From the NCBI GenBank assembly GCA_045655785.1, contig JAZOPW010000225.1, positions 1 through 28,686 on the forward strand: 28,686 nucleotides of DNA, written 5' to 3'. This stretch comes from Eubacteriales bacterium (GTDB taxonomy: Bacteria > Bacillota > Clostridia > Oscillospirales > CAG-272). Positions 1-26,840 of the stretch are shown one piece after another. A program made the translations under genes and the position numbers. Under the pieces are notes generated by a model. It was given only the letters and a program-made list of their open reading frames with translations, had not been told where the DNA came from and made no database searches. How positions within the stretch are numbered: the first letter of the stretch is position 1; every line of letters begins with the position of its first letter.

Positions 1-3000
1 CCTTGAGTACCACATTCTCGGTCAAAAGTAAGCTTGTTTCTGCCGCATAGGGCTCGCCGATGACCGCGTTGCCGCTGACGATCTCCCACTTGAGGAATAC
101 CTTGCCGTCGGCAGGGTCGTTTGCAAAGAGGTAAAGGCGTGTGCCGATGGGCTCCTCTGCGGAGGGATCGTCAGCTTCGTATACGTACGCGCCGCCGTCG
201 GTCACGCTGACGGTCGCCTTACTCGGGTTGGGGGCGCAAACGTAATCGGCTCCAACGTAGCCATCGTCTCCGTAGGCATCAAGCCAATCCGAATCCGCCA
301 CGAAGCCTGCGGGGAGGATCATATTGATCTCTACGTAGGGAGAAAACGTGTACCCCTCTTTGGGGATCAGTTCCATCCATGCGCTGTACGTTTTTCCGTT
401 TTCAAAAATCAGGGTGTCCTCGAAGGTGTACCATGTGTCTCCGTCGTACCACTCAAAGTCGTTCACTGTGTAGGGGGCTTCCTTTGGAAGCGTTGCAACA
501 AAGCTTGCCTGCTGACCGCTGACGGGGAGCGTGAAGCTGACGTTGACCTCGGTGATGGGTGTGAGCGCCACGTAGGTAAAGCGGCAAAGGATCTCGTTTG
601 CGGTCAAGCTTATGATCTCTGCTCTCGTGCTATCAACGTTTTGATATACCCTGTAGGTCGTTGCAGTATCAAAATAGTAACCCGCCTGGGGAAGGATGCG
701 AAGCTCAACCGTGTAGCTCTTGCCCTGCTCGAAGGTGTCGGCAGAGGTCAGCTTGGTCGTGCCGTCGTAGTAACCGATGACTGTGGAAACCGACTTGTTA
801 TAGGTATCCTCCTGATCGCCGTCAACCGGCTTGCCGCCCGTATAGGGGACAAGGAAGTCAAGATAGAAGTAACTATACGGAACGGCGGCATACGAATTAT
901 AATTTGCCGTAAAGGAAACGTTGCTCGTTCCCATGGTAAAGGTGGTCTCGGTTGCCTTGTTGTCAGCAAGGAGCGAGGAGTTGCCCGACCAGCCGCTGAA
1001 GTACTTGCCCTCATCGGGTACATCGGCAACGATCTTGACCTCGGTGTTAGGTGCGACCTTGGAGCCGCTTGCGACCTCCTCGTCGTCCACATAGATCTTA
1101 CCACCCGTTACGGTGACAGTGTAGCTTTTCAGCTTGGGAGCCAGCTCGTAGCCGCACACGGTACAGGTCTGCGGTTCTGTTTCTGTTGCCGCGGGACCGG
1201 GGGTGTGTTTGGTCTCTGAGGTCTTACTGCCCGTTTTGTCGGTACAATCAGGATCGTTACACTCCTTCCAATGGTGCGTTGCGTTGGATTGGTAGTCGTC
1301 GCCGTAGGTGTGGGTGTGATAAATGGCGCGGACGGTAACGGGTTCCTTGGTATACATGTAGAAATACCCGCCGGTTGCCTGATTGACGTTGCTGATGGAA
1401 ATTCCGCCGCTGACGACCTCCCAACGCAAGAAGGATTTGCCTTCGGGAATCTCGCCCACCGTCAGATACACGATGCTGCCGTATTTCTGCTCGGTGATCT
1501 CCTCGTCCTCCGCATTGGTTGCCACGCCGCCCTCCACGGTAATGGGAACGGGGGCATAGAGATCTGCATACCGATGCAGATAGGGAGGATTGGAGGAATA
1601 ATACCCCGACTTTTCGCCGTTGACCGTCACCACGGTACTGTTATTGATATAGTATTTTTCATCAAGCTCAAGGTAGAAGACGATTCCGTACGTCACACCG
1701 TAGGAGAAGGTATCCTCGGCGCCCATTTTGCGGTTGTTGAAGTTATCCCACCAATAATCAAGCGTTGCCGTATACTTGGTAGGATCGGCAGAGGTGATCT
1801 CCTCGGAAGGAAGCTCTCCGTTTGCAGGCTTGGTAACCGTCAGGGTCAGCTCCTCCAGGTAAATTTTATCCGCCCAAATGACGCGGACCTCTACTGCCTC
1901 GCCCGTCATTACAAAGGTGGTGGTCTTTTGGGTCGCATCCGAGAAGGTCACACCGCCGCTGACACACTCCCAACCTGCAAAATATTTGCCGTCGGGGGCA
2001 TCGTCCGCAGTGATCGTTACCGTCTCTCCGCTACCCGCAAACGTAATGTCTGCCTCACCGTCGGTGACGGTGACTGTGTGCGGGGTGTTGCGGTAGACCG
2101 CTTTGATGCTGACGTTGCCTGCAGTCATGACGAAGGTGGTCGTACTTGCGGTTGCATCTGCGAGGAATACGTTCTCGCCGCTGACGATCTGCCATTCCTT
2201 GAACGCCTTGCCTGCCTCGGGTACATTTGCGGTGATGGTCACCACAATGCCGCCGCTGACCTCGGTCACGGGCGTTTCGTCAACCGATGCCGTACCCCCT
2301 TCCACGGTGACGTTGTAGGGCTCGCCTGCCTCCACGGTAAACTGCAGGTAATAACCGCAGGTGGAATATCCGCCGGCGGCAGTTCCGCCGCCCCTATATT
2401 GGGGCTCGGTGCCGTTGATGAGCACCACCAGATCATGCAAATCAATGTAGTGCGTTTCGTTGGTGGTAAAATCAACGGAGATGCGGTAGGTCTTACCGAC
2501 CTCAAAGAGCTCGCCATCCAACATCTCGCGATACTTCTCGGCTTCCTCATCGTAAACCTCCCAGCTGCGAAAATCGACGTCGCAGTAGGTGTCGGCGCTC
2601 TTGGTCACCGTTTTGTCGGGTGCCTTACCCGCAACAGGAGCGGTCACGGTAACAGATGCGCTGTCCTCGTAGTGTCTCGCCTGAACCGATACCTCAAAGA
2701 CAATGTATTCGCCATTTTCGTCAAGCTCGAGGATGATTCCGTCTACATTGGTTCCGTTGAAGCTATTATAAGGCTCATAGGTATCGTAATACTCTGCGTC
2801 GCGGAAACGGTAGCCTGCTGCGGGAGTCAAACGAAGCTTTACGGTGTAAACCTTGCCCGCCTCAAAAACGTGGGTAGGCTCAAGCAGTGTTTCACCCTCA
2901 TACCAGCCCAGCACCTCACCGTAATAGTTTTGGTAGGTCGGCACGCCTGCATCATAGGAGGGGGTGTCGCCAATCGTGGGATGCGGTACCTGGGTGTACG

Positions 3001-6000
3001 GCCCATAGTTGACCTGCGTTAACGTCTGATACTGTGCCTCAAGCACGATCGTTGAATCGAACGCGGAAGGCACGCCAACCGTAAAGGTCAGTGTGGAGAA
3101 GCGGTAGTCGGTGACGCCGACAATTGTACTGTACACATAGGGAGTTGCCCACGTTTTGAATACCTGTCCCTCTGGGAAAAGGCTCTCGTCTGCCACCAGC
3201 GTCAGGACCGTTCCGGGGAGAAACTCGGTCTCGTTGGTCTCCACGCCGTCGAGATAGAGCTTACCGCCCGTAATATCAAAGCTTACGTAAACGGTGTCAA
3301 AGTAATAAGCTCGTGCGTGTACGATTCCCGTACCGCTCACATAACCGAAAGTGGAAAGCTGCTTGTCATTTATCGTGATTCTAACGTCGCCGTAGTCGAT
3401 GAAATAGCCGTCGATGGGAACGATGCTGAATTCGCATTTGTATTCTACGTTGGGCTGATAGGTGTCGGTGGGGAGCATTTCGTGCAGGTTGAGCTCCTCA
3501 TCGTAGTAATACCATCCATCGATTACAATATCGTAAAGATCACTGTTGTCGGCAACGGTGGTAATGGGGGTTTCTCCAACCTTGATGGGGGGCATGGTGC
3601 CCTCTGCGGTGTCTATCGGGATCGCCCAAATGGCTTCGCAGGTCAGAACGGAAACGGAGCTGCCAATGTACCAGTTTGTATCATAATGGCAATAGTGGGT
3701 ACCCGTGCCGTCGGTGATCTTCCACATCAGGAATTTTTTGCCCTCGGGGGCTTCACCCGCTTTGAGGTAAATATAAGTGCCGGAAAAGACCTCGCCAATT
3801 TCATTGATATGCTCACTTTCAGTGTAGGCTTTTCCGCCCGTGACGGTAACGAGTACAGGCAAATGAAACGACCATCTGTGCTTTTCATAGCCCGTAACGT
3901 CACCGCCGTATGCGTAGGTCTGGTCACCGTTTACGGTAACGACCGTGTCGGAGGAAACTGCGTAGCCCTCGGCGGGAATGATCTCAAACTGCATCACGTA
4001 GGGCATACCGTGCTCAAAGCGATCGGTAGGTAGCAGATCGGGATAGGGGTTTTTATTAAGGTAAAACTCACAAAGCACCGCCGTGTATCTTGTAGGATCG
4101 GCAGAGGTGATCTCAATGGTTGCAAGATCTCCGACCGCAGGCTTTGTAACGGTGAGCGTCACCTCGGTCAGCACGGTGGCGTAGACTGCCTCCAGCTCGA
4201 TCTCCTCATCGTAAATTCGGAAGGAGGGGTTTCTGCTTGTGGTATCAATGGAGATGTCGCCCTTTTTGACGAGCCATTTGACAAAGATCTTGCCCGGCGC
4301 GGGATCTGCCGCGGTAACGTAGATGTAATCGCCGGATCCAGCCTCGGTGATCTCCACGGTGCGGTCGCTGTCTGCGTATGCTTTGCCGCCCGTGACGGTG
4401 ACGGCACCCGTCGTCGTCAGATAACCCCAGTGGGCGCTTTCGTAGTAGCTGCCGTAGAGCGTCTCTCCGTTGAGGGTTTTCACGGTTTCGTTTGTGATGA
4501 TCGAGCCGTCTGCCGTGACCACGTCAAAGCTGATCTTATATTCGGTCAGCGGCAGATATTTGTCGGAGGGGGTAAGCGGTGTGCCCACGGAGTAGATCTC
4601 AATGACCACGTTCTCCGCCCAATACTTTTCGGGCTCGGCGGAGTTGACCGTGAGATTGACATTCTCACCGCGCACGAAATCGGCAAGGGTAAAGTGCATC
4701 TCCTCAAGCGGCGTTGCAAAGACCGCCACGATCTCCACGGCCTTCTCGCTCATGGTGAAGTAGGTTTCCTCATTGGTGGGGTTGCTGATCGTGACATTGC
4801 CCGAGACGACCTTCCAATATTTGAAAACCTTTCCCTCGGGCGCTTCGTCTGCGCGGAGGTAGACCCATTGATTTCGTCCGACGGTGATCTCCGCGGTGCG
4901 GTCGCTGTCCTCGTATGCCTTGCCGCCTGTGACGGTGATCGGTACGGGAAATTCAAAATAATAGCGCTTGGTGTAGGTTCCGTTGTCGCTCATTTCCACG
5001 CCGTTGACGTAGAACTTGGCGTCATCGGCAAGCTCGTAGCCGTTTTGGAGTTCAAAGCGCAGCTCCAGCTCATAGCCCTTGCCGGATAGATAGACGTCCT
5101 CGTCGGTCAGATCGGGGTAGAGCCCCTCATAGAGGTAGATGCGAACCGTGTCAACGCCGTATTTGGTCGGCTCCGCAGGTGTCAGAACAAAGCTCGGATG
5201 CGCACCAACCGTGGGAACGGTCATGGTGAAATCCAAGCGATCCAGCTCAACGATCTCGGCATAGATCGCTTCAAGCACCACGTTACCCGCAATCATGGTA
5301 AAGGAGGTGGAGTCGGAGGTTGGATCCTCAAGCGTGATCTCACCGCTGACGACCTTCCAGCGAATGAAGGCATAGCCCGAAGTGGGGCTATCCGCAGAGA
5401 TGTAAATCTCCTCGTCGACGTTCGCGTCCGTGATCTCATTGTCGTTGTGGTTGACGTAGCCCTTGCCGTCCTTGATCGAAACGGTGTAATCGGTGTAGGA
5501 ATAAAGCGCCGTGATCACGATATTGCCCGTACCGTCCGCCGTGAAGGTGGTGGTGCTGTCGACGCCCGCAACCGAGCCGCCGTTGACATTCCATCCGTTG
5601 AAGGTTGCGCCTGCGCGCTCCTCCGCGGTGATCGTGAATACGTCGCCGATCTGTGCCGAGGTCACGGGGGTTCCGTCCTTGGTTGCCGAGGCGTACTCGG
5701 TGGCAACCGTAAAGGTTGCCTTTTCGTAGACGGCAACGATCGTCACGTCGGAGGAAAGGCCGCTAAAGGTCGTGGTTGCGGCAGTGGCATCGGCAATCGT
5801 ACAGCTGCCCATACTGATCTGCCACTCTTTAAAAACGTAGCCCGTGGCGGGATCGTTTGCCGTGATGGTCACGGTGTCCTCGATCGTTGCTACGGAGATA
5901 TCGGTCTCCTCGATCGATGCCGTGCCGTCGGTCACGGTCACGCTATATTCGATCGGTGCATAGGTTGCCGTAACGGTGACGTTGCTGTATTCCACGAGGA

Positions 6001-7342
6001 AGGAGGTGGTCAGAGCGGAAGCATCCGTCAATGCCACACCGCCTGCCGGGACCGTCCAGCCAGCAAACTGATAGCCTGCCTCGGCCTCATCTGCCGTGAT
6101 GGTCACGATCGTTCCTGCAGGTGCCGTGCTCACGTTTGCCGTGCCATGGTTGACGGTGATCCCGTAGAGCGGCTCGTAGGTGGACTCCAGCTCAACCGCG
6201 CCGCCGGTCATCGTGAAGGTGGTGGTGCTCTCCGTTGCGTCGGCAAAGGTCACCTCGCCCACGGTGGCGCCCCACTGCATAAAGGTCATCCCCGCCTCGG
6301 GAGCGTCGGCTTCGACCGTCACAATCTCTCCCTTGCTCGCAGAGGTAACCTCCACGCCGTCCACCTTTGCCACACCGCCCGTGACGGTGACGGGGAACTT
6401 ATAGGCATAGGTCTTGCTGGTCATATCGTCGGGGAGTGTGCCGATCTTATAGTTGCCGTCGGTCAGACCGTCGCTGTATTTGATCTCGCATTCTTCGTCA
6501 AAATTGGGGTAGGTCCAATCCAGCGTCATATTACCAACCGCACCGAGCTGCATATCCGACGCGCGGAAGATGTTTTCACCGAGCTCGTAGCCGGATTTAC
6601 CGCAAACCGCGATCGAAACATCACCCGTGGTGTTGATCACGATCGTGCTGTCAAGAGAATAAACGGCAGCCGCCGAGCTGGAATATACGTTGTTTGCCTC
6701 GATTGTCAGGCTTGCATTGCCCAAAACCGAGATCATACCATAGGCACCGATCCCGTAGGCTCCGCCGGTGGTGTAGGTTTTGGTCGATTCAATTGAAACC
6801 GCAGCCTTTCCCATAATGCTTACGCTGTCACCCGATTTCGGGGCAGACGCATAGGAGCCATCAAAGTTGTTGGAGATGCCGACGTAGTGGGCAGACTCAT
6901 CGGAATGGTCGGTGGCAGGGAGACTTTCGATCTCCAGCGTTGCCGCACTGTCGGCGGTGATCGTCAACTCTCCGCCATAGAGGCTGATGCCACAGTATTT
7001 GTGTTGGATGGTATTTGCGTTCATCAGCTTGACCGTCAGATCCCCTACGGCACTCGTGGAGATGGCACCGCCATAGTAATCCCTCAGGGTCAGTGTGCCC
7101 GTGTCAACGTCAAACTGAGCCACCCAAGAGAAGGATCCAAGCTGTGTTCCATCGTCTACAATATATCCCCCGCCCGTATCCAGCAGATAGGGGGTGGTCG
7201 CATTCAGAATCTTGTCTTTGTCCACCGTGACGGAAGTAACGGGCGATGTGTCTGCCGCTGCGGGGAACATCAACATGCCAATCATCGTGAGTGCTACCAA
7301 TAATAGCATACAAAGTTTGCTCAATTGCTTTGTTGTCTTCAT
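1..7342 (-). CDS. Giant secreted/cell-surface repeat protein, partial (3' end beyond window), >=2447 aa, with ~14 divergent InlB B-repeat-like (Flg_new_2-type) modules and ~9 copies of a second Ig-like module
   Basis: ATG at 7342 with RBS GAAAGGAG and signal peptide MKTTKQLSKLCMLLLVALTMIGMLMFPAAA-DTS. Manual translation stays open to base 2 (...ENVVLK). Recurring module TVTVTGG...VTITAD.PEEGKVF..W.VVSG......TTFTM....V...AVY alternates with module L.EVTLTVTKP..GE.P......Y......F..GK.Y.V...L.P..GY. Absent from the ORF track, probably because it has no stop in the window. Confidence 0.93.
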   Translation of the reverse strand, partial: MKTTKQLSKLCMLLLVALTMIGMLMFPAAADTSPVTSVTVDKDKILNATTPYLLDTGGGYIVDDGTQLGSFSWVAQFDVDTGTLTLRDYYGGAISTSAVGDLTVKLMNANTIQHKYCGISLYGGELTITADSAATLEIESLPATDHSDESAHYVGISNNFDGSYASAPKSGDSVSIMGKAAVSIESTKTYTTGGAYGIGAYGMISVLGNASLTIEANNVYSSSAAAVYSLDSTIVINTTGDVSIAVCGKSGYELGENIFRASDMQLGAVGNMTLDWTYPNFDEECEIKYSDGLTDGNYKIGTLPDDMTSKTYAYKFPVTVTGGVAKVDGVEVTSASKGEIVTVEADAPEAGMTFMQWGATVGEVTFADATESTTTFTMTGGAVELESTYEPLYGITVNHGTANVSTAPAGTIVTITADEAEAGYQFAGWTVPAGGVALTDASALTTSFLVEYSNVTVTATYAPIEYSVTVTDGTASIEETDISVATIEDTVTITANDPATGYVFKEWQISMGSCTIADATAATTTFSGLSSDVTIVAVYEKATFTVATEYASATKDGTPVTSAQIGDVFTITAEERAGATFNGWNVNGGSVAGVDSTTTFTADGTGNIVITALYSYTDYTVSIKDGKGYVNHNDNEITDANVDEEIYISADSPTSGYAFIRWKVVSGEITLEDPTSDSTSFTMIAGNVVLEAIYAEIVELDRLDFTMTVPTVGAHPSFVLTPAEPTKYGVDTVRIYLYEGLYPDLTDEDVYLSGKGYELELRFELQNGYELADDAKFYVNGVEMSDNGTYTKRYYFEFPVPITVTGGKAYEDSDRTAEITVGRNQWVYLRADEAPEGKVFKYWKVVSGNVTISNPTNEETYFTMSEKAVEIVAVFATPLEEMHFTLADFVRGENVNLTVNSAEPEKYWAENVVIEIYSVGTPLTPSDKYLPLTEYKISFDVVTADGSIITNETVKTLNGETLYGSYYESAHWGYLTTTGAVTVTGGKAYADSDRTVEITEAGSGDYIYVTAADPAPGKIFVKWLVKKGDISIDTTSRNPSFRIYDEEIELEAVYATVLTEVTLTVTKPAVGDLATIEITSADPTRYTAVLCEFYLNKNPYPDLLPTDRFEHGMPYVMQFEIIPAEGYAVSSDTVVTVNGDQTYAYGGDVTGYEKHRWSFHLPVLVTVTGGKAYTESEHINEIGEVFSGTYIYLKAGEAPEGKKFLMWKITDGTGTHYCHYDTNWYIGSSVSVLTCEAIWAIPIDTAEGTMPPIKVGETPITTVADNSDLYDIVIDGWYYYDEELNLHEMLPTDTYQPNVEYKCEFSIVPIDGYFIDYGDVRITINDKQLSTFGYVSGTGIVHARAYYFDTVYVSFDITGGKLYLDGVETNETEFLPGTVLTLVADESLFPEGQVFKTWATPYVYSTIVGVTDYRFSTLTFTVGVPSAFDSTIVLEAQYQTLTQVNYGPYTQVPHPTIGDTPSYDAGVPTYQNYYGEVLGWYEGETLLEPTHVFEAGKVYTVKLRLTPAAGYRFRDAEYYDTYEPYNSFNGTNVDGIILELDENGEYIVFEVSVQARHYEDSASVTVTAPVAGKAPDKTVTKSADTYCDVDFRSWEVYDEEAEKYREMLDGELFEVGKTYRISVDFTTNETHYIDLHDLVVLINGTEPQYRGGGTAAGGYSTCGYYLQFTVEAGEPYNVTVEGGTASVDETPVTEVSGGIVVTITANVPEAGKAFKEWQIVSGENVFLADATASTTTFVMTAGNVSIKAVYRNTPHTVTVTDGEADITFAGSGETVTITADDAPDGKYFAGWECVSGGVTFSDATQKTTTFVMTGEAVEVRVIWADKIYLEELTLTVTKPANGELPSEEITSADPTKYTATLDYWWDNFNNRKMGAEDTFSYGVTYGIVFYLELDEKYYINNSTVVTVNGEKSGYYSSNPPYLHRYADLYAPVPITVEGGVATNAEDEEITEQKYGSIVYLTVGEIPEGKSFLRWEVVSGGISISNVNQATGGYFYMYTKEPVTVRAIYHTHTYGDDYQSNATHHWKECNDPDCTDKTGSKTSETKHTPGPAATETEPQTCTVCGYELAPKLKSYTVTVTGGKIYVDDEEVASGSKVAPNTEVKIVADVPDEGKYFSGWSGNSSLLADNKATETTFTMGTSNVSFTANYNSYAAVPYSYFYLDFLVPYTGGKPVDGDQEDTYNKSVSTVIGYYDGTTKLTSADTFEQGKSYTVELRILPQAGYYFDTATTYRVYQNVDSTRAEIISLTANEILCRFTYVALTPITEVNVSFTLPVSGQQASFVATLPKEAPYTVNDFEWYDGDTWYTFEDTLIFENGKTYSAWMELIPKEGYTFSPYVEINMILPAGFVADSDWLDAYGDDGYVGADYVCAPNPSKATVSVTDGGAYVYEADDPSAEEPIGTRLYLFANDPADGKVFLKWEIVSGNAVIGEPYAAETSLLLTENVVLK

Positions 7343-9110: not shown

Positions 9111-9146
9111 TAAAAAGTCCTGAAATCTTGCGATTTCAGGACCTTT
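9111..9146 (-). terminator. Intrinsic terminator, probably the original tRNA-Ser terminator displaced by the insertion
   Basis: Perfect 11-bp stem GTCCTGAAATC-N4-GATTTCAGGAC (9117-9142) followed on the minus strand by TTTTT. It lies directly downstream of the duplicated tRNA 3' end. Confidence 0.75.
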
Positions 9147-9149
9147 CTT

Positions 9150-9163
9150 TGGCGGAGAAGGAG
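9150..9163 (-). repeat. Attachment-site direct repeat (copy of the tRNA-Ser 3' end, CTCCTTCTCCGCCA)
   Basis: TGGCGGAGAAGGAG at 9150-9163 is identical to 26511-26524, the last 14 nt of the tRNA including CCA. Confidence 0.9.
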
Positions 9164-9263
9164 CAAATTGTGTTATGTACACAACCATATACATTACGTT
9201 TGAATCAACATATTAGCATCCCCTATATTTTAACAATTTTCATTTCTCCAAAGCATCTTTTCC

Positions 9264-9989
9264 TTATGTTAAAAATTCCTTATTATCAAAATAAAATTCT
9301 TTCATATCATCAAGCCGCAGAAACATAGGTGTAGCTCCTCCGGATGCACCTACATCTATATCAATCCAAGTATCCGTATGAAATGCTTTGCCTTGAGCGC
9401 CATAGAAATATGTAGGGGTGTGTCCGAAAACCGTTAATATGTTATCAAAATATCGATCCTCTTTTTGGGGACGATTCCAAAGGAGGTCATTTTCCGAATA
9501 ATCAGACAGTTTTTTATTTTTATCGAAATTACGAAATCCTGAATGGCAAAGAAGAAAAGATTTTCCGTTTATTTCAACACTTTCACATAGGGGCGTATCA
9601 CGTAAATACGCTACCATGTCCTCAACTATTTCGGGTGATGTATGCAGTAAGCGTTTTACTTCGCCAAGTGTGGGAATTGCTCCGTTAGCTAACCAACAAT
9701 TTAGATTATCTAAATCTTTTGCGGATACATTGGATAGCGAGCGCTCTGTTATTGACTCAAAAACCCAAGTGCAAGAGATCATCATTTGTTCGTGATTTCC
9801 CCTTATCAATTGAACATTCGGTTGCTCAAGAAGCCACAACAATATAGCTATACCGCCATCATTATTTCGATCAATGACATCTCCTAAGATGTATAGCCAA
9901 TCACTTGGAGAAAATCCAATAATTTTCAATAGTTGCTTGAATTTTTTAATCGAAATTCCGTGAAGATCTGTAGTAACGTAAACTGCCAT
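9264..9989 (-). CDS. Calcineurin-like metallophosphoesterase, PPP-family Ser/Thr protein phosphatase-like
   Basis: Motifs DLHG, GDVIDR, RGNHE, HSG, FGHTP and IDVG in canonical order; RBS AAGGAG. Confidence 0.9.
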   Translation of the reverse strand: MAVYVTTDLHGISIKKFKQLLKIIGFSPSDWLYILGDVIDRNNDGGIAILLWLLEQPNVQLIRGNHEQMMISCTWVFESITERSLSNVSAKDLDNLNCWLANGAIPTLGEVKRLLHTSPEIVEDMVAYLRDTPLCESVEINGKSFLLCHSGFRNFDKNKKLSDYSENDLLWNRPQKEDRYFDNILTVFGHTPTYFYGAQGKAFHTDTWIDIDVGASGGATPMFLRLDDMKEFYFDNKEFLT

Positions 9990-10150
9990 CTTTCTCCTTA
10001 TTATTTCGTATATGCATCATAGTTGTAACTGTACCTAAACTCAGATGATTAGTAGTCTTAAATATTTCGTTGTGTGTCACTAGCCTAGCAGTACTTCAAT
10101 ACAAGTTAGCTCTGCGTTAGTATTCGTGTTATGTGATGGCACCGTTAACA

Positions 10151-11347
10151 TCAAGAAAGATTCCAATCAAGACGTAGTTTAAAACCATAGTCTTCATCAT
10201 TTGCGCACATTGCTACTCTGTTTGCTTCTACAGCTGGGGCAAAATCTCTATTTTGTCCACTCATACCACGTTTTTTGAACTCTCGAATATGATTTTCGGC
10301 AGTGTTGAGCATAAATTCATACGTATCATATGTTTCTTGATATGATTTCAACGACAACATATCACATTGGACTTTTAAGCAATGGAGATAATGTTTAAAG
10401 GAGTTCGTTTCGTTATAGTTCGTACTTGAAGGAACTGCGCCTTTGAATAACATTTCAGAGTATGGATTTTGAAATTCCCCTTGCGGTAGAAAAGCGTCAA
10501 GATATCCTCGTTGCATAGCAACATCGAGCAATGTAGCTTTATATTCACTAAATGCCGTAGGGAGATAATACCACGTGCTCTTGTGCTTGATATCGTCATC
10601 TTTGGGCGATTTGAATTTTGCAGGAACAAAAGATCGTGTATTCATATATGTGCCAGATGCAATGCCGTCTACATTGGCTAATGAATAAAGCAAACCTTGA
10701 TGATTGGAGTATCCCACAATCACTTGCTTTTTTGCAAGTTTTAAGCATGTGAACAATTTCAAAGCGCCTATCACCCAACTGGGATCAGAAACAATATACT
10801 CGTTATTGGAAGGATGAGGAATAATATAATACCCATCTACGGGAATTATCTTGAGTTGTTCCACTAAGCCCTCAATTGCAATGGGATTTCTAATGGTTTC
10901 TGGATATAAGCATAGTGTTGCAAGAAGCGGTTTGTCTGTTTTTTGAGAAAGATATGCTGCCGATTGATTCATGCAATTGAGTCCATAATTAAATTGATTC
11001 TCTTGCATTTCTATACCGGGAAGAATTATGTGCGAGCTGTTAATTTCATTGTTAATTCTTAACAATTCTCGGTTAATTGTTTCATATCCGTTTTGAGAGG
11101 TTATAGATACACCGCTTGATGGCCAGTAGTCATATGCTTGCAATTTTATGTGACCCTCTTTAGGATAGAACATTTGAGGATCAAAGAGAACCCGTCCTCC
11201 ACATGCATGGATTTTGTTCGCAAAACTAACAAGTTTATCTTGTTGAAGATTTACGGGGCTGATAATTACACTCCCTTTTCCCCAAGATTTTATTAATTCC
11301 TGGGATAACGCTTGCATTCCATGACCTAGTTGTAAATACAATTCCAT
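10151..11347 (-). CDS. Uncharacterised 398-aa protein, predicted (beta/alpha)8 TIM barrel
   Basis: Eight alternating short hydrophobic strands (LYLQLG, SVIISP, VLFDPQ, HIILPG, LLATLCL, GYYII, VIVGY, DGIASG) separated by helical segments. Starts 3 nt after the kinase stop, with RBS GGAGG. The fold is inferred by eye. Confidence 0.8.
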   Translation of the reverse strand: MELYLQLGHGMQALSQELIKSWGKGSVIISPVNLQQDKLVSFANKIHACGGRVLFDPQMFYPKEGHIKLQAYDYWPSSGVSITSQNGYETINRELLRINNEINSSHIILPGIEMQENQFNYGLNCMNQSAAYLSQKTDKPLLATLCLYPETIRNPIAIEGLVEQLKIIPVDGYYIIPHPSNNEYIVSDPSWVIGALKLFTCLKLAKKQVIVGYSNHQGLLYSLANVDGIASGTYMNTRSFVPAKFKSPKDDDIKHKSTWYYLPTAFSEYKATLLDVAMQRGYLDAFLPQGEFQNPYSEMLFKGAVPSSTNYNETNSFKHYLHCLKVQCDMLSLKSYQETYDTYEFMLNTAENHIREFKKRGMSGQNRDFAPAVEANRVAMCANDEDYGFKLRLDWNLS

Positions 11348-11350
11348 TAG

Positions 11351-12196
11351 TTAATCCTCCAGTTCAAGGGTGGCTCGGATAGCCGATAAATAGCGCAATG
11401 CATCTGCGGCAGTATCGGGGCGTTGAGATTGATTTTTTGCCATAAGCATATTAACAAATTGAGCAAACATTCCCTTAGTATCTCCCTGTAAAACCAATGA
11501 TGTTGGTATTAGTGACATAGTTCGTGTCATAATCTGATAAATCGTTTCATTAGGTTTTACAAATGGATTTTTCCCGGCACAACATTCGTATGTTGTAACC
11601 CCTATTTGAAACAAATCTGTACGAACATCTTGCGAGAGTTTGATGTTTGCGAATTGTTCATGAGGAGCATATCCAGGAGTAAACGGACCGTGTAACGCCC
11701 CTGTTTGCGTTATAGAGGTTCCACCAATTTTTTTGGCAAGGCCAAAATCAATAAGGTAAACCATTCCATTTGCTCCCAAAATAATGTTGTTAGGATTGAT
11801 ATCGCGGTGTAAAATATTGTTTTTTTCGAGTTCGATTTCAATACACAGCAAGGTTTCAAGAATTTTGAAAGCAAAAGACAAATCAGCTTTGTTTCCTTTG
11901 TTTAACCAATCTCGTAACGATGTGCCGGAGATATATTCCTCTACGATATAAAGGGCATCTTCGTTAACCGTTTCATCCGTTACAATACCGCTGTCAATGA
12001 TTTTGGGAACATTATTCAGATTCAATTGTCTAAGAATTGCAATCTCTTGCAAAACTCTAGGATCCGTAGCGTTTCCAATTATTTTCAAAGCTACTGTTTG
12101 TCCACTGGAATCTATAGCTGAATAAACAATTTTTTGCCCACCTTTTTTTATTTTGTTGATAGAAGTATAGTTCGCTTTTAACTCTGATATGTTCAT
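11351..12196 (-). CDS. Hanks-type Ser/Thr protein kinase, cytoplasmic, kinase domain only (~281 aa)
   Basis: GGQKIVY loop, VALK, HRDINPNN, DFGLAK, GYAPHEQ, DLFQIG and RP motifs. Likely start is ATG 12196 (RBS GAGGAG, ATGA overlap with the upstream stop), not 12235. No TM or PASTA domain. Confidence 0.93.
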   Translation of the reverse strand: MNISELKANYTSINKIKKGGQKIVYSAIDSSGQTVALKIIGNATDPRVLQEIAILRQLNLNNVPKIIDSGIVTDETVNEDALYIVEEYISGTSLRDWLNKGNKADLSFAFKILETLLCIEIELEKNNILHRDINPNNIILGANGMVYLIDFGLAKKIGGTSITQTGALHGPFTPGYAPHEQFANIKLSQDVRTDLFQIGVTTYECCAGKNPFVKPNETIYQIMTRTMSLIPTSLVLQGDTKGMFAQFVNMLMAKNQSQRPDTAADALRYLSAIRATLELED

Positions 12197-12966
12197 ATAT
12201 CCGTCTCCTCTGTATGTATCCATCGTAAAATCCACTCATTAAACTGAATGGAAGCGTATGAAACAGGAATACATCTTTTTGTGCTAGCAAGAGTTGTCTT
12301 AATTTTTCCATTCACTAGAATAATGCCCAATCCATCACTACTACATGTATCGATAATGGTTGATGAGCACGAATCTTTATTTAATAAAATATATGATTCT
12401 GTAGAAAACCAAATATTATTGTTTGCTTGTCGTATGGCTTCATTCCATTTGTCTATTTTTGCTTCGATCGCAATAATTTTATTTATTCTACAATACCTTC
12501 TAAAGTCAACATTGCTTGCATTATTTTTATCATCAGACAAATAAATCAATCCGCAATTAAATAATCTTAAAAGTGATTTTCGCACAACATCAGTTGGAAA
12601 ACCTAGTATATCGCTGATTTGTTTTGTCGAAGATTTTTTTTGTTTCTGTATGTAAAATAATATTTTAAAATCTGTAGTAGTTAAACTATTCCTTGTTTTA
12701 TCCCATGACAAATTTGGAACGGAATAAAATTCTACAATCACGATATCTGGATACCCGGTATCAATTTGAGGTTCGATAAATATAGCAGCTTTCTTAGATT
12801 TACATTTCGAATATTTTTTTATCAAAAACTCTATATATTTATTTACCATGTCAAACTCTTTACCGAGAGTACTTGTTCTTGATATATATCCAATTTGTGG
12901 AATAGAACTGTTAAATAAGATAATGTTTTGAGGAATTTGAATATTTCTTTCAAGTTGTTTTTTCAT
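12193..12966 (-). CDS. PD-(D/E)xK nuclease-fold protein with an inserted winged HTH
   Basis: FIEPQIDTGYPDIVIV (E...PD) and IIAIEAKIDKWNEAIRQA (ExK...Q) flank a wHTH-like segment, SSTKQISDILGFPTDVVRKSLLRLFNCGLIYL. ATGA overlaps at both ends. Confidence 0.75.
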   Translation of the reverse strand: MKKQLERNIQIPQNIILFNSSIPQIGYISRTSTLGKEFDMVNKYIEFLIKKYSKCKSKKAAIFIEPQIDTGYPDIVIVEFYSVPNLSWDKTRNSLTTTDFKILFYIQKQKKSSTKQISDILGFPTDVVRKSLLRLFNCGLIYLSDDKNNASNVDFRRYCRINKIIAIEAKIDKWNEAIRQANNNIWFSTESYILLNKDSCSSTIIDTCSSDGLGIILVNGKIKTTLASTKRCIPVSYASIQFNEWILRWIHTEETDI

Positions 12967-13172
12967 ACTGTATCACCTGAAGTTAATTCAAATGCTCTCA
13001 TAAATTTGGCATTGACAGCATCCGCAATTATTTCCAATTCCTCAATAGTAAAACTTTCTCTTTTTAATTTAGCGTTAAATGCTTGCGGTGAAGTTCCAAT
13101 TCTCCTGGCTAGCTCCGCTACGCTTATATTAGACCGAACACATAATACTTTTATTTGCTCAGAAATAGTCAT
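12963..13172 (-). CDS. Small XRE/Cro-type HTH protein (69 aa), first gene of the kinase operon
   Basis: SNISVAELARRIGTSPQAFNAKLKRESFTIEELEIIADAV; its stop overlaps the nuclease ATG. Confidence 0.85.
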   Translation of the reverse strand: MTISEQIKVLCVRSNISVAELARRIGTSPQAFNAKLKRESFTIEELEIIADAVNAKFMRAFELTSGDTV

Positions 13173-13201
13173 AAAACATTACCATCCAAACATAAAAATT
13201 C

Positions 13202-13254
13202 TAATTTATATTATAAATTAAAAAGTTTATTTTGTCAATGTTTTTTTGACAAAA
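13202..13254 (-). promoter_or_regulatory. Consensus sigmaA promoter of the HTH-nuclease-kinase operon with candidate operators
   Basis: TTGACA (13233-13238), 17 bp, TATAAT (13210-13215) on the minus strand. Perfect palindrome TAATTTATA-T-TATAAATTA (13202-13220) covers the -10. Inverted repeat TTTTGTCAA/TTGACAAAA (13230-13254) covers the -35. Confidence 0.8.
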
Positions 13255-13332
13255 ACTCACACTAAAAAATTGCAGATAATCAAAAAACATTTATACACCA
13301 TACCTATGAAATCACAATCATAGGAGGTACAC

Positions 13333-14686: not shown

Positions 14687-14791
14687 ATGAAAAAGCGTTA
14701 TGAAAATCCCCAAGTTTGTGTTTTGGAGCTTTCTAACGAGGATGTTCTCACCACATCGGGTGGGGATGAAAATCAAGGCGAGTGGACTTGA
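14687..14791 (+). CDS. Unannotated 34-aa peptide MKKRYENPQVCVLELSNEDVLTTSGGDENQGEWT
   Basis: Strong RBS AAGGAGG upstream of ATG 14687; TGA at 14789-14791; YxxP leader-like motif. Too short for the ORF track. Confidence 0.75.
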   Translation: MKKRYENPQVCVLELSNEDVLTTSGGDENQGEWT

Positions 14792-14805
14792 CTGCTCAAA
14801 AAACA

Positions 14806-14848
14806 AACAGTCGGTGTATTATGATTCTCTCAAAATACACCGACTGTT
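14806..14848 (+). other. 15-bp perfect inverted repeat between the peptide gene and the LRR gene
   Basis: AACAGTCGGTGTATT (14806-14820) and AATACACCGACTGTT (14834-14848); no U-tract follows. Confidence 0.85.
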
Positions 14849-14876
14849 CCCAACATTAAAAAGGAGATTAAGGAAA

Positions 14877-16994
14877 ATGAAAAACAAAAAATTTTTATAT
14901 TTATTAACTCTGTTGATTTTAGTCCCCCTGATTGGAACTATAACAATTTTTGCAACAGGTACTTCAACTGAACCAACTTTGAGTATTGACAAATTCAATT
15001 TGTCCTTTTCGGATTCTATCTACATCAAATATGCGGTCAAGATTGACGGTGTTGACGCAACATTGTTGGGAGATGATTTTCGAATGCTTTTTTGGACGGT
15101 ACCGCAAAGTATTTATGAAAAAGGAACTGAAGCGAGCAGTATCGTTTCTACCGATACACAAACGATCAACGGACAGAAATATTATATTTTCGATTATAAA
15201 AAACTTGCCGCTAAACAAATGACCGACGCAATCTATGCAAGAGCCTATCTGCTTGTTGACGGAAAGGCATATTACAGCGAGGTGGAAAAATACAGTATCC
15301 TTGACTATGTATATACGAAGCTTGGAAAGACCGGAACTGCAACGAACGATGAAAATTTGAAAGTGTTACTTGCCGAGATGCTTTCCTACGGTGCATCAGC
15401 GCAAACATATTTTAATTACAAAATCGACAGACTTGCTACCGCTGATTATTATCAGATTACAGTAGGCGGCGAGGGATATATATCCTCCGACCTCTGTCAA
15501 CATGGGTTGTATTTAAAGGGGGAAACGGTTGAGATTACTGCCCCCGAAAGAAACAGTGATGGTGTTATATTTGCATATTGGATGGATATTAACGGAAATA
15601 AAATTTCGACCACTCGAACTTATCGTGCAACTGTCGAAGCTGAGAACAAGACTTTTATACCCAAATTTACGCATACCGACTTTGAATCCCTGAGATTAAT
15701 CCAAACAGAATTTGAAAAATTGCCAAGCAGCTTTGTTCAGTCAGACATTCATTCTTATAAACAAGCAGTTGCCTTACTTAATTCCGTATTGGAACAAATT
15801 GATGAATATGAATCCTCTTATGAGTGTCCTGATTTGAATAATTGCTCTCAATGTAATTTCGGTCATGATATTGATCTTTGGGCTTTGAGAACAGATGCAT
15901 TATCTACTATCGGATCTGCTTATGCTTCGCATTATAACGAACTATTAGCGAATGGGGGCGATATTAATGAATCCCATGCGCAGTCTGTTCTGTCATTATA
16001 TAAAGAATATTCAGCATTATTAGCAACTTGCACCGTTAATGATGTAGAAAATATCAAGACACAGGCAATGGATGAACTTGAAAAATATCCTGTATGTAGT
16101 ATTACAGCAAAAGGAACATGCGGTGAAAATCTTAGTTGGGAATATTACGGAAGTACAAAAACACTCATTATTACCGGCACGGGCGATATGACATCTAACC
16201 CTTGGTCTCCTTCTTACCGTGAAGAAATTTCAACTGTTATTCTGAGGGATGGCGTAACATCTATTACAGATAGTGCTTTTAAGTATTGCGCTAAGTTAAG
16301 TAGCATTTCTATTCCAAATACTGTTACAAAAATAGGAGACTATGCATTTTACGAGTGTTATGCATTATCCACCATCAATATACCGAATCAATTAGTAAGT
16401 ATTGGTTCTCACTTGTTTTATAATTGTACTAGCCTAGAAACAATAATAATTCCTCAAAACATCACCAGTATTGGTTGGCGAGCCTTTTTCAATTGTAAAA
16501 AGTTAACCCACGTCATAATTCCTGATTCAGTAACTAGCATAGGCAAGGAAGCATTTAATAACTGCGATAGCCTTGTTAGTGTTGTAATCGGCAATGGATT
16601 AACATGTATTGATGAATATTTATTTAACAGTTGTGACAACCTAGAAAAAATTACAATTGGAAGTAACATAAAAACTATTAAAACATACGCCTTTGCAAAT
16701 TGTAAAAAAATAAGCAGCATAGTTATACCAGCCAATGTAACCGGCGTTGACGGATATGCATTTAGATATTGCGAAAATCTTTCAAGTATAACTATTTTAG
16801 GTGATATATCGGCGATTTCTGCATTATATGATTGTGATAATCTTGTTGTATATTACGCTGGAACGGAATGTGAGGAAGAGAATCTAAGAACCGGCGGAAA
16901 CACCTTCGCTCCAATTTACTGTTATGCTGAAACGAAACCAATAGGAAAAGGACGATACTGGCATTATGTAAATGATATCCCTACAATTTGGTAA
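14877..16994 (+). CDS. Secreted surface protein with C-terminal BspA-type leucine-rich repeats (LRR_5), 705 aa
   Basis: Start ATG 14877 (RBS AAGGAG); signal peptide MKNKKFLYLLTLLILVPLIGTITIFA; one InlB-B-like module; repeats of the form SIGxxAFxNCxxLxSIxIPxxVT. Confidence 0.9.
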   Translation: MKNKKFLYLLTLLILVPLIGTITIFATGTSTEPTLSIDKFNLSFSDSIYIKYAVKIDGVDATLLGDDFRMLFWTVPQSIYEKGTEASSIVSTDTQTINGQKYYIFDYKKLAAKQMTDAIYARAYLLVDGKAYYSEVEKYSILDYVYTKLGKTGTATNDENLKVLLAEMLSYGASAQTYFNYKIDRLATADYYQITVGGEGYISSDLCQHGLYLKGETVEITAPERNSDGVIFAYWMDINGNKISTTRTYRATVEAENKTFIPKFTHTDFESLRLIQTEFEKLPSSFVQSDIHSYKQAVALLNSVLEQIDEYESSYECPDLNNCSQCNFGHDIDLWALRTDALSTIGSAYASHYNELLANGGDINESHAQSVLSLYKEYSALLATCTVNDVENIKTQAMDELEKYPVCSITAKGTCGENLSWEYYGSTKTLIITGTGDMTSNPWSPSYREEISTVILRDGVTSITDSAFKYCAKLSSISIPNTVTKIGDYAFYECYALSTINIPNQLVSIGSHLFYNCTSLETIIIPQNITSIGWRAFFNCKKLTHVIIPDSVTSIGKEAFNNCDSLVSVVIGNGLTCIDEYLFNSCDNLEKITIGSNIKTIKTYAFANCKKISSIVIPANVTGVDGYAFRYCENLSSITILGDISAISALYDCDNLVVYYAGTECEEENLRTGGNTFAPIYCYAETKPIGKGRYWHYVNDIPTIW

Positions 16995-17427: not shown

Positions 17428-18603
17428 ATGAACGAAAACACCTACGAACAAAATCAAGAAATTACCACGGAAGTCACCCAAGAAGCCACCCATGTCTGCT
17501 CGGAATGCGGCGCGAAGTTAACCGCCGACGAAGCCCATGAATTTGAGGGACACCTCTATTGCGAGGATTGCCTTGACGATCTGACCGTCCTTTGTGACTG
17601 TTGCTCTACACGGATTTTGCGAGACAACGCAGAGGGCAACGATTCGCTGATCCTTTGCACCCGTTGCTACGAGGATCGCTACACCACCTGCGAGGACTGC
17701 GGGTGTCTGATCCCAACCAACGATGCCTATTACGACGATGACTCGGACTACCCCTATTGCGCAAGCTGCTATCAAAAGCTTCGGGAGCGTCCGATCCATT
17801 CGTACAACTACAAGCCTGAACCCATCTTCTACGGCACGGAAAATGATCTCTACATGGGCGTGGAATTGGAGGTCGACAAGGGGGGTGAATTGGACGAGAA
17901 CGCCGAAAAGATTCTCGACGTTGCAAATTTCTCCAAGGATCACGTCTATTGCAAGCATGACGGAAGCATCCACGACGGTTTTGAGATCGTCAGCCATCCC
18001 ATGACCTTGGAATACCACACGTCCAAGATGAACTGGAAGGAGGTCTTTGAGACGGCATTGGAGATGCGCTACGCGTCCCATAATACCTCAACCTGTGGCT
18101 TTCATATCCATTGTAGTCGCTATGCCTTTGGCGAGGATTCCTATACGCAGGATGCCGCCATCGGCCGTGTGGTCTTCTTCGTTGAAAAGCATTGGAATGA
18201 GCTTGTCCGCTTCTCTCGCCGTCATGCTGATGCTTTGGAACGTTGGGCGGCAAGATATGCGACCATCTCCCCAACAACCAAAGAAACCTTCAAGAAAGCC
18301 AAGGACAAACGCATGGGGAGGTACGTTGCCGTCAATTTGGAGAACTACGAAACCATTGAGTTTCGTCTGTTCAGAGGCACACTTCGCTATGAGACATTCA
18401 TTGCAACCTTGCAGTTGGTATCCGAGATCTGCAACGCTGCCATTGTCCTGACGGACGAGGAAATGGAGAACCTCTCTTGGAGCGATTTTGTTCTTCGTAT
18501 TGACAAAGAGAACCGCTCGGAGCTGATCAATTATCTCAAATTGAAGCAGCTCTACGTCAACGAGCCTGTGTGTGAAATCACTGATGAAAGTGAGGGCATG
18601 TAA
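17428..18603 (+). CDS. Putative amidoligase (COOH-NH2 ligase, Amidoligase_2-like) with N-terminal Cys-rich zinc-binding repeats
   Basis: GVELEV, KHDGSI, GFEIVSHP, CGFHIH, RYVAVN and TIEFRLFRGT motifs; three CxxC-x(16-19)-CxxC units in the N-terminal ~115 aa; RBS AGGAGG. Confidence 0.85.
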   Translation: MNENTYEQNQEITTEVTQEATHVCSECGAKLTADEAHEFEGHLYCEDCLDDLTVLCDCCSTRILRDNAEGNDSLILCTRCYEDRYTTCEDCGCLIPTNDAYYDDDSDYPYCASCYQKLRERPIHSYNYKPEPIFYGTENDLYMGVELEVDKGGELDENAEKILDVANFSKDHVYCKHDGSIHDGFEIVSHPMTLEYHTSKMNWKEVFETALEMRYASHNTSTCGFHIHCSRYAFGEDSYTQDAAIGRVVFFVEKHWNELVRFSRRHADALERWAARYATISPTTKETFKKAKDKRMGRYVAVNLENYETIEFRLFRGTLRYETFIATLQLVSEICNAAIVLTDEEMENLSWSDFVLRIDKENRSELINYLKLKQLYVNEPVCEITDESEGM

Positions 18604-18604
18604 G

Positions 18605-19549
18605 ATGTGCGGATTGTTTGGATTTTCGGATTACAGTGGGAAAAGCACCAAGGGCTTGTCCGACCTTACCAATTCTCTTGCCGAGCAATCTGCGGTCAGA
18701 GGGATTGACGCTACGGGGATTGCTTTTTGTAGACCGGGCGGTATCAACATTCAAAAGGAGGCGAAATCGGCGTATGCTTTGGATTTCAAGCATCCCGATG
18801 ATGTTCCCGCATTGATCGGTCATACAAGGCATTCGACACAAGGGGACGAGAAAAAGAACTTCAACAACCATCCGTTCTACGGAAAGGCAAAAGGCGTCCG
18901 CTTTGCGCTTGCTCATAATGGTGTGCTATTGAACGACGAGGATTTGAGAAAAGAACTGAATCTTCCCAAGACCAAAATCAAGACCGATTCCTTCATTGCG
19001 GTACAGTTGATCGAGAGTCGAAAGGTCTTTAATATCGACAGTATCAAATACATGGCGGAGCAAGTCAAGGGGAGCTTTTCGTTTTCAATCTTGGATGATC
19101 GGAACAACGTCTATCTCGTTAAAGGTGATTCACCGCTCTCGATCCTGCATTTTCCAAAGCAAAAGCTCTACGTCTATGCCAGCACCGAGCCGATTCTCTA
19201 CAAGGCGTTGGTGGATACCAAACTCTTTGATGCGTTGAAGATTGGAGACTATGAGGAGATCCCGATTGAGGAGGGTGAGATTCTTAAGATTCGTCCCGAT
19301 GGAAAGATCGAACGGCATCACTTTCATTATAGCTACTACAAATCCAAGGGCTGGTGGGAGTATGATGGATATGCATCCTATGGTCTATCCTTCGGGAACA
19401 CAACGGGGAGTGAGCGGGATGCCTATATTGATGCATTGAAATCGATTGCGGCATACCAAGGGGTGTCAATTGGTGTAGTCGATGAACTGCTAAAAGAAGG
19501 CTTTACACCGGAGGAAATCGAGGAGTACATTTATGAGTTCGCGTACTGA
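18605..19549 (+). CDS. Class II (Ntn) glutamine amidotransferase
   Basis: Likely start ATG 18605 gives MCGLFG (catalytic Cys2); RGIDATG, GHTRHST, NNHPF, AHNG and TDS motifs; 1 nt after the amidoligase stop. Confidence 0.9.
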   Translation: MCGLFGFSDYSGKSTKGLSDLTNSLAEQSAVRGIDATGIAFCRPGGINIQKEAKSAYALDFKHPDDVPALIGHTRHSTQGDEKKNFNNHPFYGKAKGVRFALAHNGVLLNDEDLRKELNLPKTKIKTDSFIAVQLIESRKVFNIDSIKYMAEQVKGSFSFSILDDRNNVYLVKGDSPLSILHFPKQKLYVYASTEPILYKALVDTKLFDALKIGDYEEIPIEEGEILKIRPDGKIERHHFHYSYYKSKGWWEYDGYASYGLSFGNTTGSERDAYIDALKSIAAYQGVSIGVVDELLKEGFTPEEIEEYIYEFAY

Positions 19550-23892: not shown

Positions 23893-23935
23893 CTACTTGA
23901 GTTTCTACATTTTTCCATGAAAGGAGGTGAGCAGA

Positions 23936-26510: not shown

Positions 26511-26602
26511 TGGCGGAGAAGGAGAGATTTGAACTCTCGCGCCGGTATAACCGGCCTACACCCTTAGCAGGGGCGCCTCTTCGGCCCCTTGAGTACTTCT
26601 CC
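26511..26602 (-). tRNA. tRNA-Ser(GCT)
   Basis: GGAGAAG/CTTCTCC acceptor stem, anticodon loop CT-GCT-AA, long variable arm GCCGGT-TAT-ACCGGC, T-arm GAGAG-TTCAAAT-CTCTC, encoded CCA. Confidence 0.97.
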
Positions 26603-26648: not shown

Positions 26649-26677
26649 ATTATACACATATTTTGTCCATTTGTCAA
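26649..26677 (-). promoter_or_regulatory. Consensus sigmaA promoter of tRNA-Ser
   Basis: TTGACA (26672-26677), 17 bp, TATAAT (26649-26654) on the minus strand. Confidence 0.85.
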
Positions 26678-26680
26678 GCC

Positions 26681-26840
26681 TTTTTTTCGGTTTTACAAAA
26701 CATTTTTTTCGGTTTTACAAAACATTTTTTCGGTTTCACAAAAGTTTTTCAAATTTACAAAGCTTTTCCTTTTCGCAAAGCTTTTCCTTTTCGCAAAGTT
26801 TTTCCTTTTTACAAAGCTTTCCCTTTTTGTAAAGCTTTTA
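26681..26840. repeat. Degenerate tandem repeats: ~22-bp TTTTTTTCGGTTTTACAAAACA x~3, then 18-bp TTTTCCTTTTCGCAAAGC x~5
   Basis: Read directly; abuts the -35 of the tRNA promoter. Confidence 0.8.

Follow-up and report, generated by a model that had tools for sequence, protein, structure and literature searches.

A mobile cassette of a nuclease-fold protein, a Hanks-type kinase and a transglycosylase-like barrel with a probable role in genetic conflict

We analysed contig JAZOPW010000225.1 of an Eubacteriales bacterium (assembly GCA_045655785.1), a stretch of 28,686 nucleotides (nt) referred to here as the window. Five minus-strand genes at one end of an integrated element encode, in the order of transcription, a Cro/C1-type helix-turn-helix (HTH) protein, a PD-(D/E)xK nuclease-fold protein with an inserted winged HTH (wHTH), a Hanks-type Ser/Thr kinase, a TIM barrel resembling tRNA-guanine transglycosylases (TGTs), and a PPP-family phosphatase. 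The conserved system is the three-gene core of nuclease, kinase and barrel, and the HTH and phosphatase genes are local add-ons, because the order of the trio is kept in 76 of 80 related loci, the phosphatase occurs in 0 of the 80, and the HTH gene is bound to one clade. Judged from domain types, mobility and context, the block is probably one copy of a self-contained, mobile three-gene conflict cassette, most likely directed against phages or mobile elements.

Conservation, layout and accessories of the core

To collect related loci, we searched with a 12-sequence alignment of the barrel, took one genome per species, and kept 80 loci; the barrel family as a whole comprises 515 clusters at 50% identity (E up to 0.001). 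Nuclease, kinase and barrel genes lie side by side in one constant order at 76 of the loci; of the other four, three are truncated at contig ends and one is decayed. The barrel gene is split in three further copies. The 80 loci are spread over Bacillota, Bacteroidota, Acidobacteriota, Planctomycetota, Cyanobacteria, Chloroflexota, Campylobacterota, Myxococcota, Actinomycetota, Verrucomicrobiota and others, and include one archaeal locus (Thermoplasmatales). The original prediction had proposed a search for conserved gene neighbourhoods around a five-gene operon; homologues do co-occur, as nuclease-kinase-barrel, and the five-gene block is not family-wide.

No other gene family recurs around the core in the 80 loci, save one element common to eight flavobacterial genomes. 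These genomes (L054-L058 and L060-L062) belong to different genera, including Flagellimonas, Maribacter, Euzebyella, Croceitalea and a Cytophaga-labelled one, and share flanks that include a 1671-aa protein, with equal E-values, which points to one large element that spread very recently.

The core is horizontally mobile and patchily distributed. A near-full-length barrel gene is present in 5 of 401 genomes of the same phylum, the window's own included, and cassette DNA is present in none of 24 genomes of the same genus. The cassette was found on three plasmids (two from Bacillus, one haloarchaeal), whose records label the genes 'hypothetical protein / serine/threonine-protein kinase / hypothetical protein'. 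None of 50,697 phage records contains it.

The features of the block and its left border in the window are as follows.

13210..13238, minus strand: promoter TTGACA-17-TATAAT (Sigma-70/SigA-type) at the start of the mobile block; sole 12/12 match in the scan
12963-13172, minus strand: Cro/C1-type HTH protein, 69 aa, clade-specific putative regulator (Pfam HTH_26, PHROG 4583)
12193-12966, minus strand: predicted PD-(D/E)xK nuclease-fold protein with inserted winged helix, 257 aa, core gene 1 (motifs, AF2 model, VIA-align)
11351-12196, minus strand: minimal Hanks-type Ser/Thr kinase without a sensor domain, 281 aa, core gene 2 (Pkinase)
10151-11347, minus strand: TGT-superfamily-like TIM barrel, 398 aa, core gene 3 (AF2 model, VIA-align)
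9990..10150, minus strand: 161-nt spacer ahead of the phosphatase gene, without a terminator; weak promoter-like site at 10029-10000 (9/12)
9264-9989, minus strand: PPP-family (lambda/NinI/PrpA-like) metallophosphatase, 241 aa, lineage-specific accessory (Metallophos, PHROG 246, motifs)
9150-9170: left attachment repeat, a direct repeat matching 26511-26531
9117-9142: hairpin and T-run terminator, remnant of a tRNA-Ser locus (read from the hairpin)

The layout agrees with that originally described, namely five co-oriented genes behind one perfect promoter, with signs of translational coupling and no terminator before the phosphatase. The sequence at 13238-13210 is the single 12/12 promoter match within the 4.7 kb scanned, and promoter-like sites overall are at chance (21 found versus 20.4 expected). 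The HTH and nuclease genes and the nuclease and kinase genes share 4-nt ATGA overlaps (12963-12966 and 12193-12196, respectively), and a 3-nt gap (11348-11350) separates the kinase and barrel genes. The same tight junction spacing is kept in relatives, which also use the same ATG for the kinase, the one giving 281 aa. From 13172 to 9264 the scan found no convincing minus-strand terminator; terminator-like sites there are at chance level, and the nearest thing to one is a weak 5-bp stem within the kinase gene. The five genes look like one co-transcribed block. The block has a GC content of 30-38%, compared with 52-60% in the chromosome on either side, and 94 nt separate it from the left repeat of the 17.4-kb element in tRNA-Ser, so its description as an AT-rich block against the left attachment site holds as well.

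The two outer genes belong to one lineage. The HTH protein matches Pfam HTH_26 (1.9e-7) and the PHROG 4583 repressor (1.9e-9), and among the 80 loci an HTH gene lies directly upstream of the core only where barrel identity is at least 68%, in a gut/rumen Firmicute clade. The phosphatase has the motifs DLHG, GDVIDRN and RGNHE expected of the PPP family and matches Metallophos (6.4e-14) and PHROG 246, a NinI-like Ser/Thr phosphatase (8.3e-31), while the PrpA/PrpB and ApaH models of NCBIfam score under their cut-offs. An exact look-up of this phosphatase in a contig index returned no record. Phmmer found no homologue at any of the 80 loci, so the phosphatase was rejected as a general partner of the core. 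PP2C domains are present in 2 of 122 nearest neighbours, not traced to loci, a count that neither shows nor excludes recurrent recruitment of phosphatases.

Only three near-identical relatives, L099, L101 and L102, have a Metallophos gene downstream of the barrel gene, with the same spacing. In L099 and L101 the homology to the window (93.6% DNA identity) has sharp limits: it begins at 13255, immediately ahead of the promoter, and ends at 9281/9288, 17-24 nt short of the phosphatase stop codon (9264). Outside these limits the flanks are unrelated, with a UvrD-type helicase next to one copy and DprA plus a RecQ-like helicase next to the other. In the more distant L010 (73% DNA identity) the aligned stretch starts at 13245 and runs out at 10163, where the barrel gene ends, without reaching the phosphatase. 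The sharing of the five-gene block by L099 and L101, together with the end point of the L010 alignment, indicates that the phosphatase recently joined a four-gene block and that the two have been mobile together since. The five-gene block therefore moves as a unit in the window's sublineage, where the five-gene operon first proposed is real, while the unit conserved across the family is three genes. The accompanying proposal that the phosphatase resets the system in general fails: absent from all 80 related loci, it is not an essential reset in general.

The core proteins and the kinase-barrel link

In the nuclease family (48 sequences), residues E65, P73-D74, E168-A-K170 and Q180 are invariant, and a winged helix at approximately residues 95-147 is inserted between the PD and ExK strands. 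The structural model predicted by AF2 has a pLDDT of 94. The best VIA-align matches of the model, made through its part outside the wHTH, are the PD-(D/E)xK domains of Can2, Cdn1, PaqCI, VC1899 and NucS (Z 9.6-10.2, rmsd 2.1-3.2 Å); a Foldseek search of the PDB with the model returned weak wHTH matches alone, and the nuclease fold is visible through VIA-align. The reading of this gene as a nuclease split by a winged helix holds by the invariant motifs and the fold matches, and the 257-aa protein, with its E...PD...(D/E)xK arrangement, is predicted to adopt the PD-(D/E)xK nuclease fold.

The kinase is a bare Hanks kinase (Pkinase, 1.1e-28) whose family invariants are K38, E51, H130-R-D132, N137 and D150-F-G. 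It thus shows the VAIK Lys, the αC Glu, the HRDxKxxN loop and the DFG motif of Hanks kinases, save the catalytic-loop Lys in the window's clade. Specifically, HRDIN replaces HRD(I/V)K (residue 134) throughout the HTH-bearing Firmicute clade (L010-L020, 11 of 11 members), and in 0 of the remaining members.

The original prediction regarded the combination of genes as unrecognised and held that an absence of PADLOC hits would support novelty. The combination is indeed not named in PADLOC v2, NCBIfam or Pfam, but the search was not a clean no-hit, as the kinase alone matches, generically, the PADLOC models for PD-T4-6 (1.7e-41) and mad6 (6.4e-40). PD-T4-6 models also label housekeeping PASTA kinases (PMC11514479), so the match means 'Hanks kinase' and little more. 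Among NCBIfam models, MAD6 reaches 100.7 bits against a cut-off of 460, PglW 34.8 against 990, and PknB is also far under its cut-off. No further MADS or BREX protein was matched in the PADLOC search, which leaves the locus outside MADS and BREX type 2. In addition, no description of the nuclease-kinase-barrel trio was found in the literature searched.

The barrel has no family in Pfam (E<=0.1), NCBIfam, PHROGs or PADLOC, and its family profile found no relative among PDB sequences. The AF2 model (pLDDT 96, pTM 0.94) is composed of eight β/α units, a hairpin at residues 259-270 and long C-terminal helices. The top five VIA-align matches all belong to the transglycosylase superfamily: archaeosine TGT (Z 20.6), bacterial TGT (19.4), QTRT2 (16.6), DpdA (15.2) and Cap10 (14.2). 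Unrelated TIM barrels rank after the TGT-type chains, with Z values of at most 14, and Foldseek concurs. Conserved residues follow the predicted strands (D56-P-Q, P110, T144, Y174, G212-Y and G232/N236/R238), and E268 is conserved in the C-terminal hairpin; in the model, these strand-end and hairpin positions suggest that the barrel is an enzyme. Among 63 family members H319 is nearly invariant and no Cys is conserved, and the CxCxxC...H zinc site of TGT/DpdA (PF01702) is absent. D56 and E268, both conserved, are candidates for the catalytic Asp pair that TGT/DpdA enzymes have on the C-terminal face of the barrel. Taken together, the domain, motif and fold evidence upholds the labels given to the nuclease, wHTH, kinase, TIM barrel and PPP phosphatase in the original prediction.

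Another genome of the phylum links the kinase and the barrel in a single chain. Locus L107 encodes a 669-aa protein that is both kinase (hhalign 99.9% to the kinase profile) and barrel (97.1%, E 5.7e-11). The barrel part carries CTCPYC followed by His, the TGT zinc signature, and the barrel family is therefore tied to true transglycosylases. The order at L107:1225-6929 is an XRE HTH, an M78 (IrrE-like) peptidase, the fusion, a convergent nuclease homologue (hhalign 98.1%) whose gene runs into the 3′ end of the fusion gene, and a large serine recombinase.

A three-chain complex prediction gave an ipSAE of 0.60 for kinase and barrel in three runs, against 0.00 for the best control; in calibration, 58 of 80 solved complexes passed, as did 2 of 110 mismatched pairs, and the passes at an ipSAE of 0.60 or less comprised just 7 of the 80 solved complexes and both mismatches. 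The confident contacts are predicted between the kinase C-lobe (187-188, 246-272) and barrel helices (159-163, 201-205, 386-393), and the ipSAE fell to 0.00 in the control with the barrel replaced. Complex modelling, which had been suggested as a check for the whole assembly, thus gives weak support to a kinase-barrel contact; it indicates no contact of the nuclease and is no evidence against one. The fusion and the complex prediction together make a kinase-barrel complex likely.

Function, rival explanations and carrier element

Read from metagenome contigs and genomes, the neighbours of related cassettes bear out the defence setting first proposed, in that relatives sit among defence and mobile genes. 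Defence genes nearby encode Thoeris ThsA/ThsB, HamA, a KAP NTPase, an OLD-type TOPRIM protein, a NACHT protein, a Lit-like peptidase (U49), AbiEii, AbiH and Schlafen. Restriction-type neighbours comprise type I/II methylases, DISARM-type SNF2/DUF1156 genes (DrmD/DrmMI-like), PglX and a NotI-like nuclease, and mobile-element neighbours comprise integrases, serine recombinases, TniQ and IS110 transposases. At L028 (3555-12112) and L029, the trio sits almost without spacing between the genes for a 948-aa DNA methylase and a 967-aa SNF2 helicase, as though it were part of a DISARM-like operon.

We propose a scheme for the cassette whose specific steps are tentative. The barrel would bind the kinase and hold it off or primed, either by binding alone or by a nucleobase-transfer reaction, the latter option being modelled on the proposal for TIM-B barrels (see below) and on Cap10. 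An infection cue would free the kinase, which would then phosphorylate cellular or phage proteins, or license the nuclease, leading to growth arrest and/or DNA cleavage. In the gut/rumen Firmicute lineage, the upstream Cro-like HTH protein would probably autoregulate the strong promoter, while in the window's own lineage the PPP Ser/Thr phosphatase would probably strip basal phosphorylation and so set a threshold against self-damage. The five-gene block is cargo, placed at one end of a serine-integrase element in tRNA-Ser.

A more specific version, in which the barrel controls the kinase by nucleobase-transfer chemistry (through covalent modification or a small-molecule inhibitor), infection breaks this control, and the phosphatase resets it in this lineage, is an improbable one. 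If true, such control would connect base-exchange enzymology with protein phosphorylation in a new form of immune regulation, and the fused relatives with the CxCxxC motif would testify to its descent from true transglycosylases.

Several points weigh against a defence cassette working in this way. The defence role is drawn from context, mobility and domain types, and the defence-island context, a qualitative tally of neighbours, is suggestive; at some loci the neighbours are housekeeping genes (Tex, ThrRS, GH95). The support lent by the predicted kinase-barrel contact is weak, and comes from author-built unpaired alignments. In the window's clade, Asn in place of the catalytic-loop Lys may lower or change kinase activity. 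The barrel has no zinc motif, and its enzymatic activity is putative. Finally, the phosphatase and HTH genes are missing from most relatives, so the roles proposed for them are not general, and the phosphatase gene may be driven from a promoter of its own and serve a function unrelated to the core.

The same proteins could instead form a modification-restriction system, in which the barrel exchanges or removes a DNA base, the wHTH-nuclease cuts according to the absence or presence of the mark, and the kinase merely regulates. DpdA, which inserts preQ0, is among the best fold matches of the barrel (Z 15.2), the nuclease brings a DNA-binding domain of its own and keeps its catalytic residues intact, and several copies lie in or beside restriction-modification, DISARM or BREX-type operons. 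We consider this reading unlikely, however, since the surroundings of the core lack preQ0/queuosine synthesis genes, a DpdB-like ATPase or any other conserved partner, the barrel family has neither the TGT/DpdA zinc motif nor any conserved Cys, and the fusion and predicted contact tie the barrel to the kinase rather than to the nuclease or DNA.

There is also little probability that the cassette is an addiction module, akin to toxin-antitoxin (TA) systems, that chiefly stabilises its carrier elements rather than stopping phages. Its position at the ends of integrative elements, on plasmids and beside recombinases would suit such a role, as would its compact, translationally coupled layout with the HTH gene first, as in many TA operons, but the flanks are often chromosomal defence islands without an element in view; moreover, roles in addiction and in defence are not exclusive, and this explanation overlaps with that of a defence cassette. 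Very unlikely is an ordinary kinase/phosphatase signalling pair serving the life cycle of the element or host physiology, without a role in conflict. Although a Hanks kinase and a PPP phosphatase in one block resemble housekeeping kinase-phosphatase pairs, and although the defence label of the kinase is weak, given that housekeeping PASTA kinases are also caught by the PD-T4-6 models (PMC11514479), none of the 80 wider relatives has the phosphatase, the kinase invariably comes with the nuclease and the TGT-like barrel, and the distribution is patchy, with near-identical copies in different genera such as the eight flavobacterial genomes.

Should the conflict cassette prove phage-protective, it would be a widespread unnamed immune system of many bacterial phyla, archaea and plasmids, with a eukaryote-like protein kinase held by a transglycosylase-like barrel as its central enzyme. 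It would also extend the TIM-B/gop-beta-cII idea to a new barrel family, with phosphorylation as the output. The occurrence of the core with and without the phosphatase and HTH genes, together with the altered catalytic-loop residue, amounts to a natural experiment and offers a route to how the kinase is kept harmless. The new points are the phosphatase and HTH accessories, the mobility of the five-gene block, the catalytic-loop change of one clade, and the independent kinase-barrel fusion with a zinc motif.

In the window, the block is the leftmost cargo of an integrated element, because tRNA-Ser (26511-26602) shares its 3′ end with the 21-nt direct repeat (9150-9170 and 26511-26531) and the region also encodes a large serine recombinase (23927-25453). 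The other genes of the element encode DUF960, a Mor-like regulator, a D5-type helicase, a small resolvase, DUF3846 and an amidoligase/GATase pair. This pair, an Amidoligase_2 protein (391 aa) followed by a class-II glutamine amidotransferase-like protein (325 aa) at 17428-19549 on the plus strand, also adjoins the cassette in relative L102 and may be peptide- or metabolite-modifying cargo of such elements. As read from its translation, the C-terminal half of a 764-aa element protein (14700-16994, plus strand) contains many 'I-IP--VT-IG--AF--C' repeats, which look like BspA-type leucine-rich repeats. Two short direct-repeat arrays (~21-22 nt x3 and 18 nt x4, with a fifth copy farther off at 22695-22739) lie at 26661-26839, just outside tRNA-Ser at the right end of the element. 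In the GC-rich chromosomal part, an open frame of more than 2447 aa (2-7342, minus strand) runs past the end of the window.

Comparison with known systems

The cassette resembles PD-T4-6 of E. coli and Stk2 of Staphylococcus epidermidis in having a Hanks kinase at its centre, and an abortive-infection action is plausible. PD-T4-6 and Stk2 are single genes, usually with extra domains, whereas the cassette kinase is bare, always paired with two proteins and part of an architecture of three to five genes. The TerY-P triad and other kinase-phosphatase defence candidates associated with Gao et al. 2020 reportedly combine a Ser/Thr kinase and a protein phosphatase in one operon, in defence contexts. 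Unlike in the TerY-P triad, no TerY/vWA protein is present here, and the phosphatase is PPP-type rather than PP2C and is confined to a sublineage. CapK/CapS (EMBO J 2026) and the DefensePredictor systems were rejected as precedents, their kinases being of other types (anti-sigma-factor type, HipA type) than that of this cassette.

Structurally, the barrel shares its fold class with DpdA, a DNA preQ0 insertase, and Cap10, which carries out deazaguanine modification of a CD-NTase, the best matches after tRNA TGTs; the Cap10 example demonstrates that barrels of this kind can act on a partner protein instead of nucleic acid. The comparison with both is one of fold: the cassette barrel shows no sequence similarity to them, lacks a zinc site and has neither QueC-like nor preQ0 genes in its vicinity. 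The viral fold library BFVD gave no specific match (TM<0.46).

The closest parallel in layout is found in TIM-B systems. A preprint unifies the beta protein of phage P4 (Pfam PF14350) with a TGT-type barrel as 'TIM-B', lists Gop, cyclase, HigB, Pol-beta, GNAT, sirtuin, RES and caspase as partner effectors, reports that the operons often occur with an HTH-metallopeptidase and a convergent restriction endonuclease (REase), and proposes that the barrel restrains the effector (bioRxiv 10.64898/2026.10.19.760177). Like P4 gop-beta-cII (Rst_gop_beta_cll in DefenseFinder) and TIM-B, the cassette combines a TGT-like barrel, a neighbouring toxic-type effector and a protein with a restriction-endonuclease fold. 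L107 goes further, with an upstream HTH and metallopeptidase and a convergent, overlapping REase gene, and the logic proposed for the cassette, a barrel that would restrain an effector, is the same. In contrast to TIM-B, the effector would be a Hanks kinase, which is not listed among the partners in the preprint, and in contrast to gop-beta-cII, the genes in the window are all co-directional, with the nuclease first and carrying an inserted wHTH; the convergent overlap was seen only in L107.

Membership of the barrel in PF14350 (Beta_protein) was rejected by sequence: it has no Pfam match at E<=0.1, PF14350 has no match in the window's genome at E<=10, and hhalign of the barrel profile gives 0.1% against P4 beta and 0.4% against a 5-member Beta_protein profile. 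Nor was homology of the nuclease to P4 cII or its relatives detected, with hhalign values of 0.1-0.3% against P4 cII and a 4-member cII-like profile. By fold, the predicted barrel shows the features of TIM-B, namely a TGT-like barrel, a C-terminal hairpin and a helical extension, and a 'T4 beta protein' (Beta_protein) cluster matches it at TM 0.54/0.62, about as well as TGTs do. The cassette would belong with TA-like defence cassettes built on a TGT-like barrel and a nuclease, and is undescribed in the literature searched. It is TIM-B-like in layout and, by sequence, not a member, and would represent a parallel or very distant branch in which a kinase serves as the effector-type partner.

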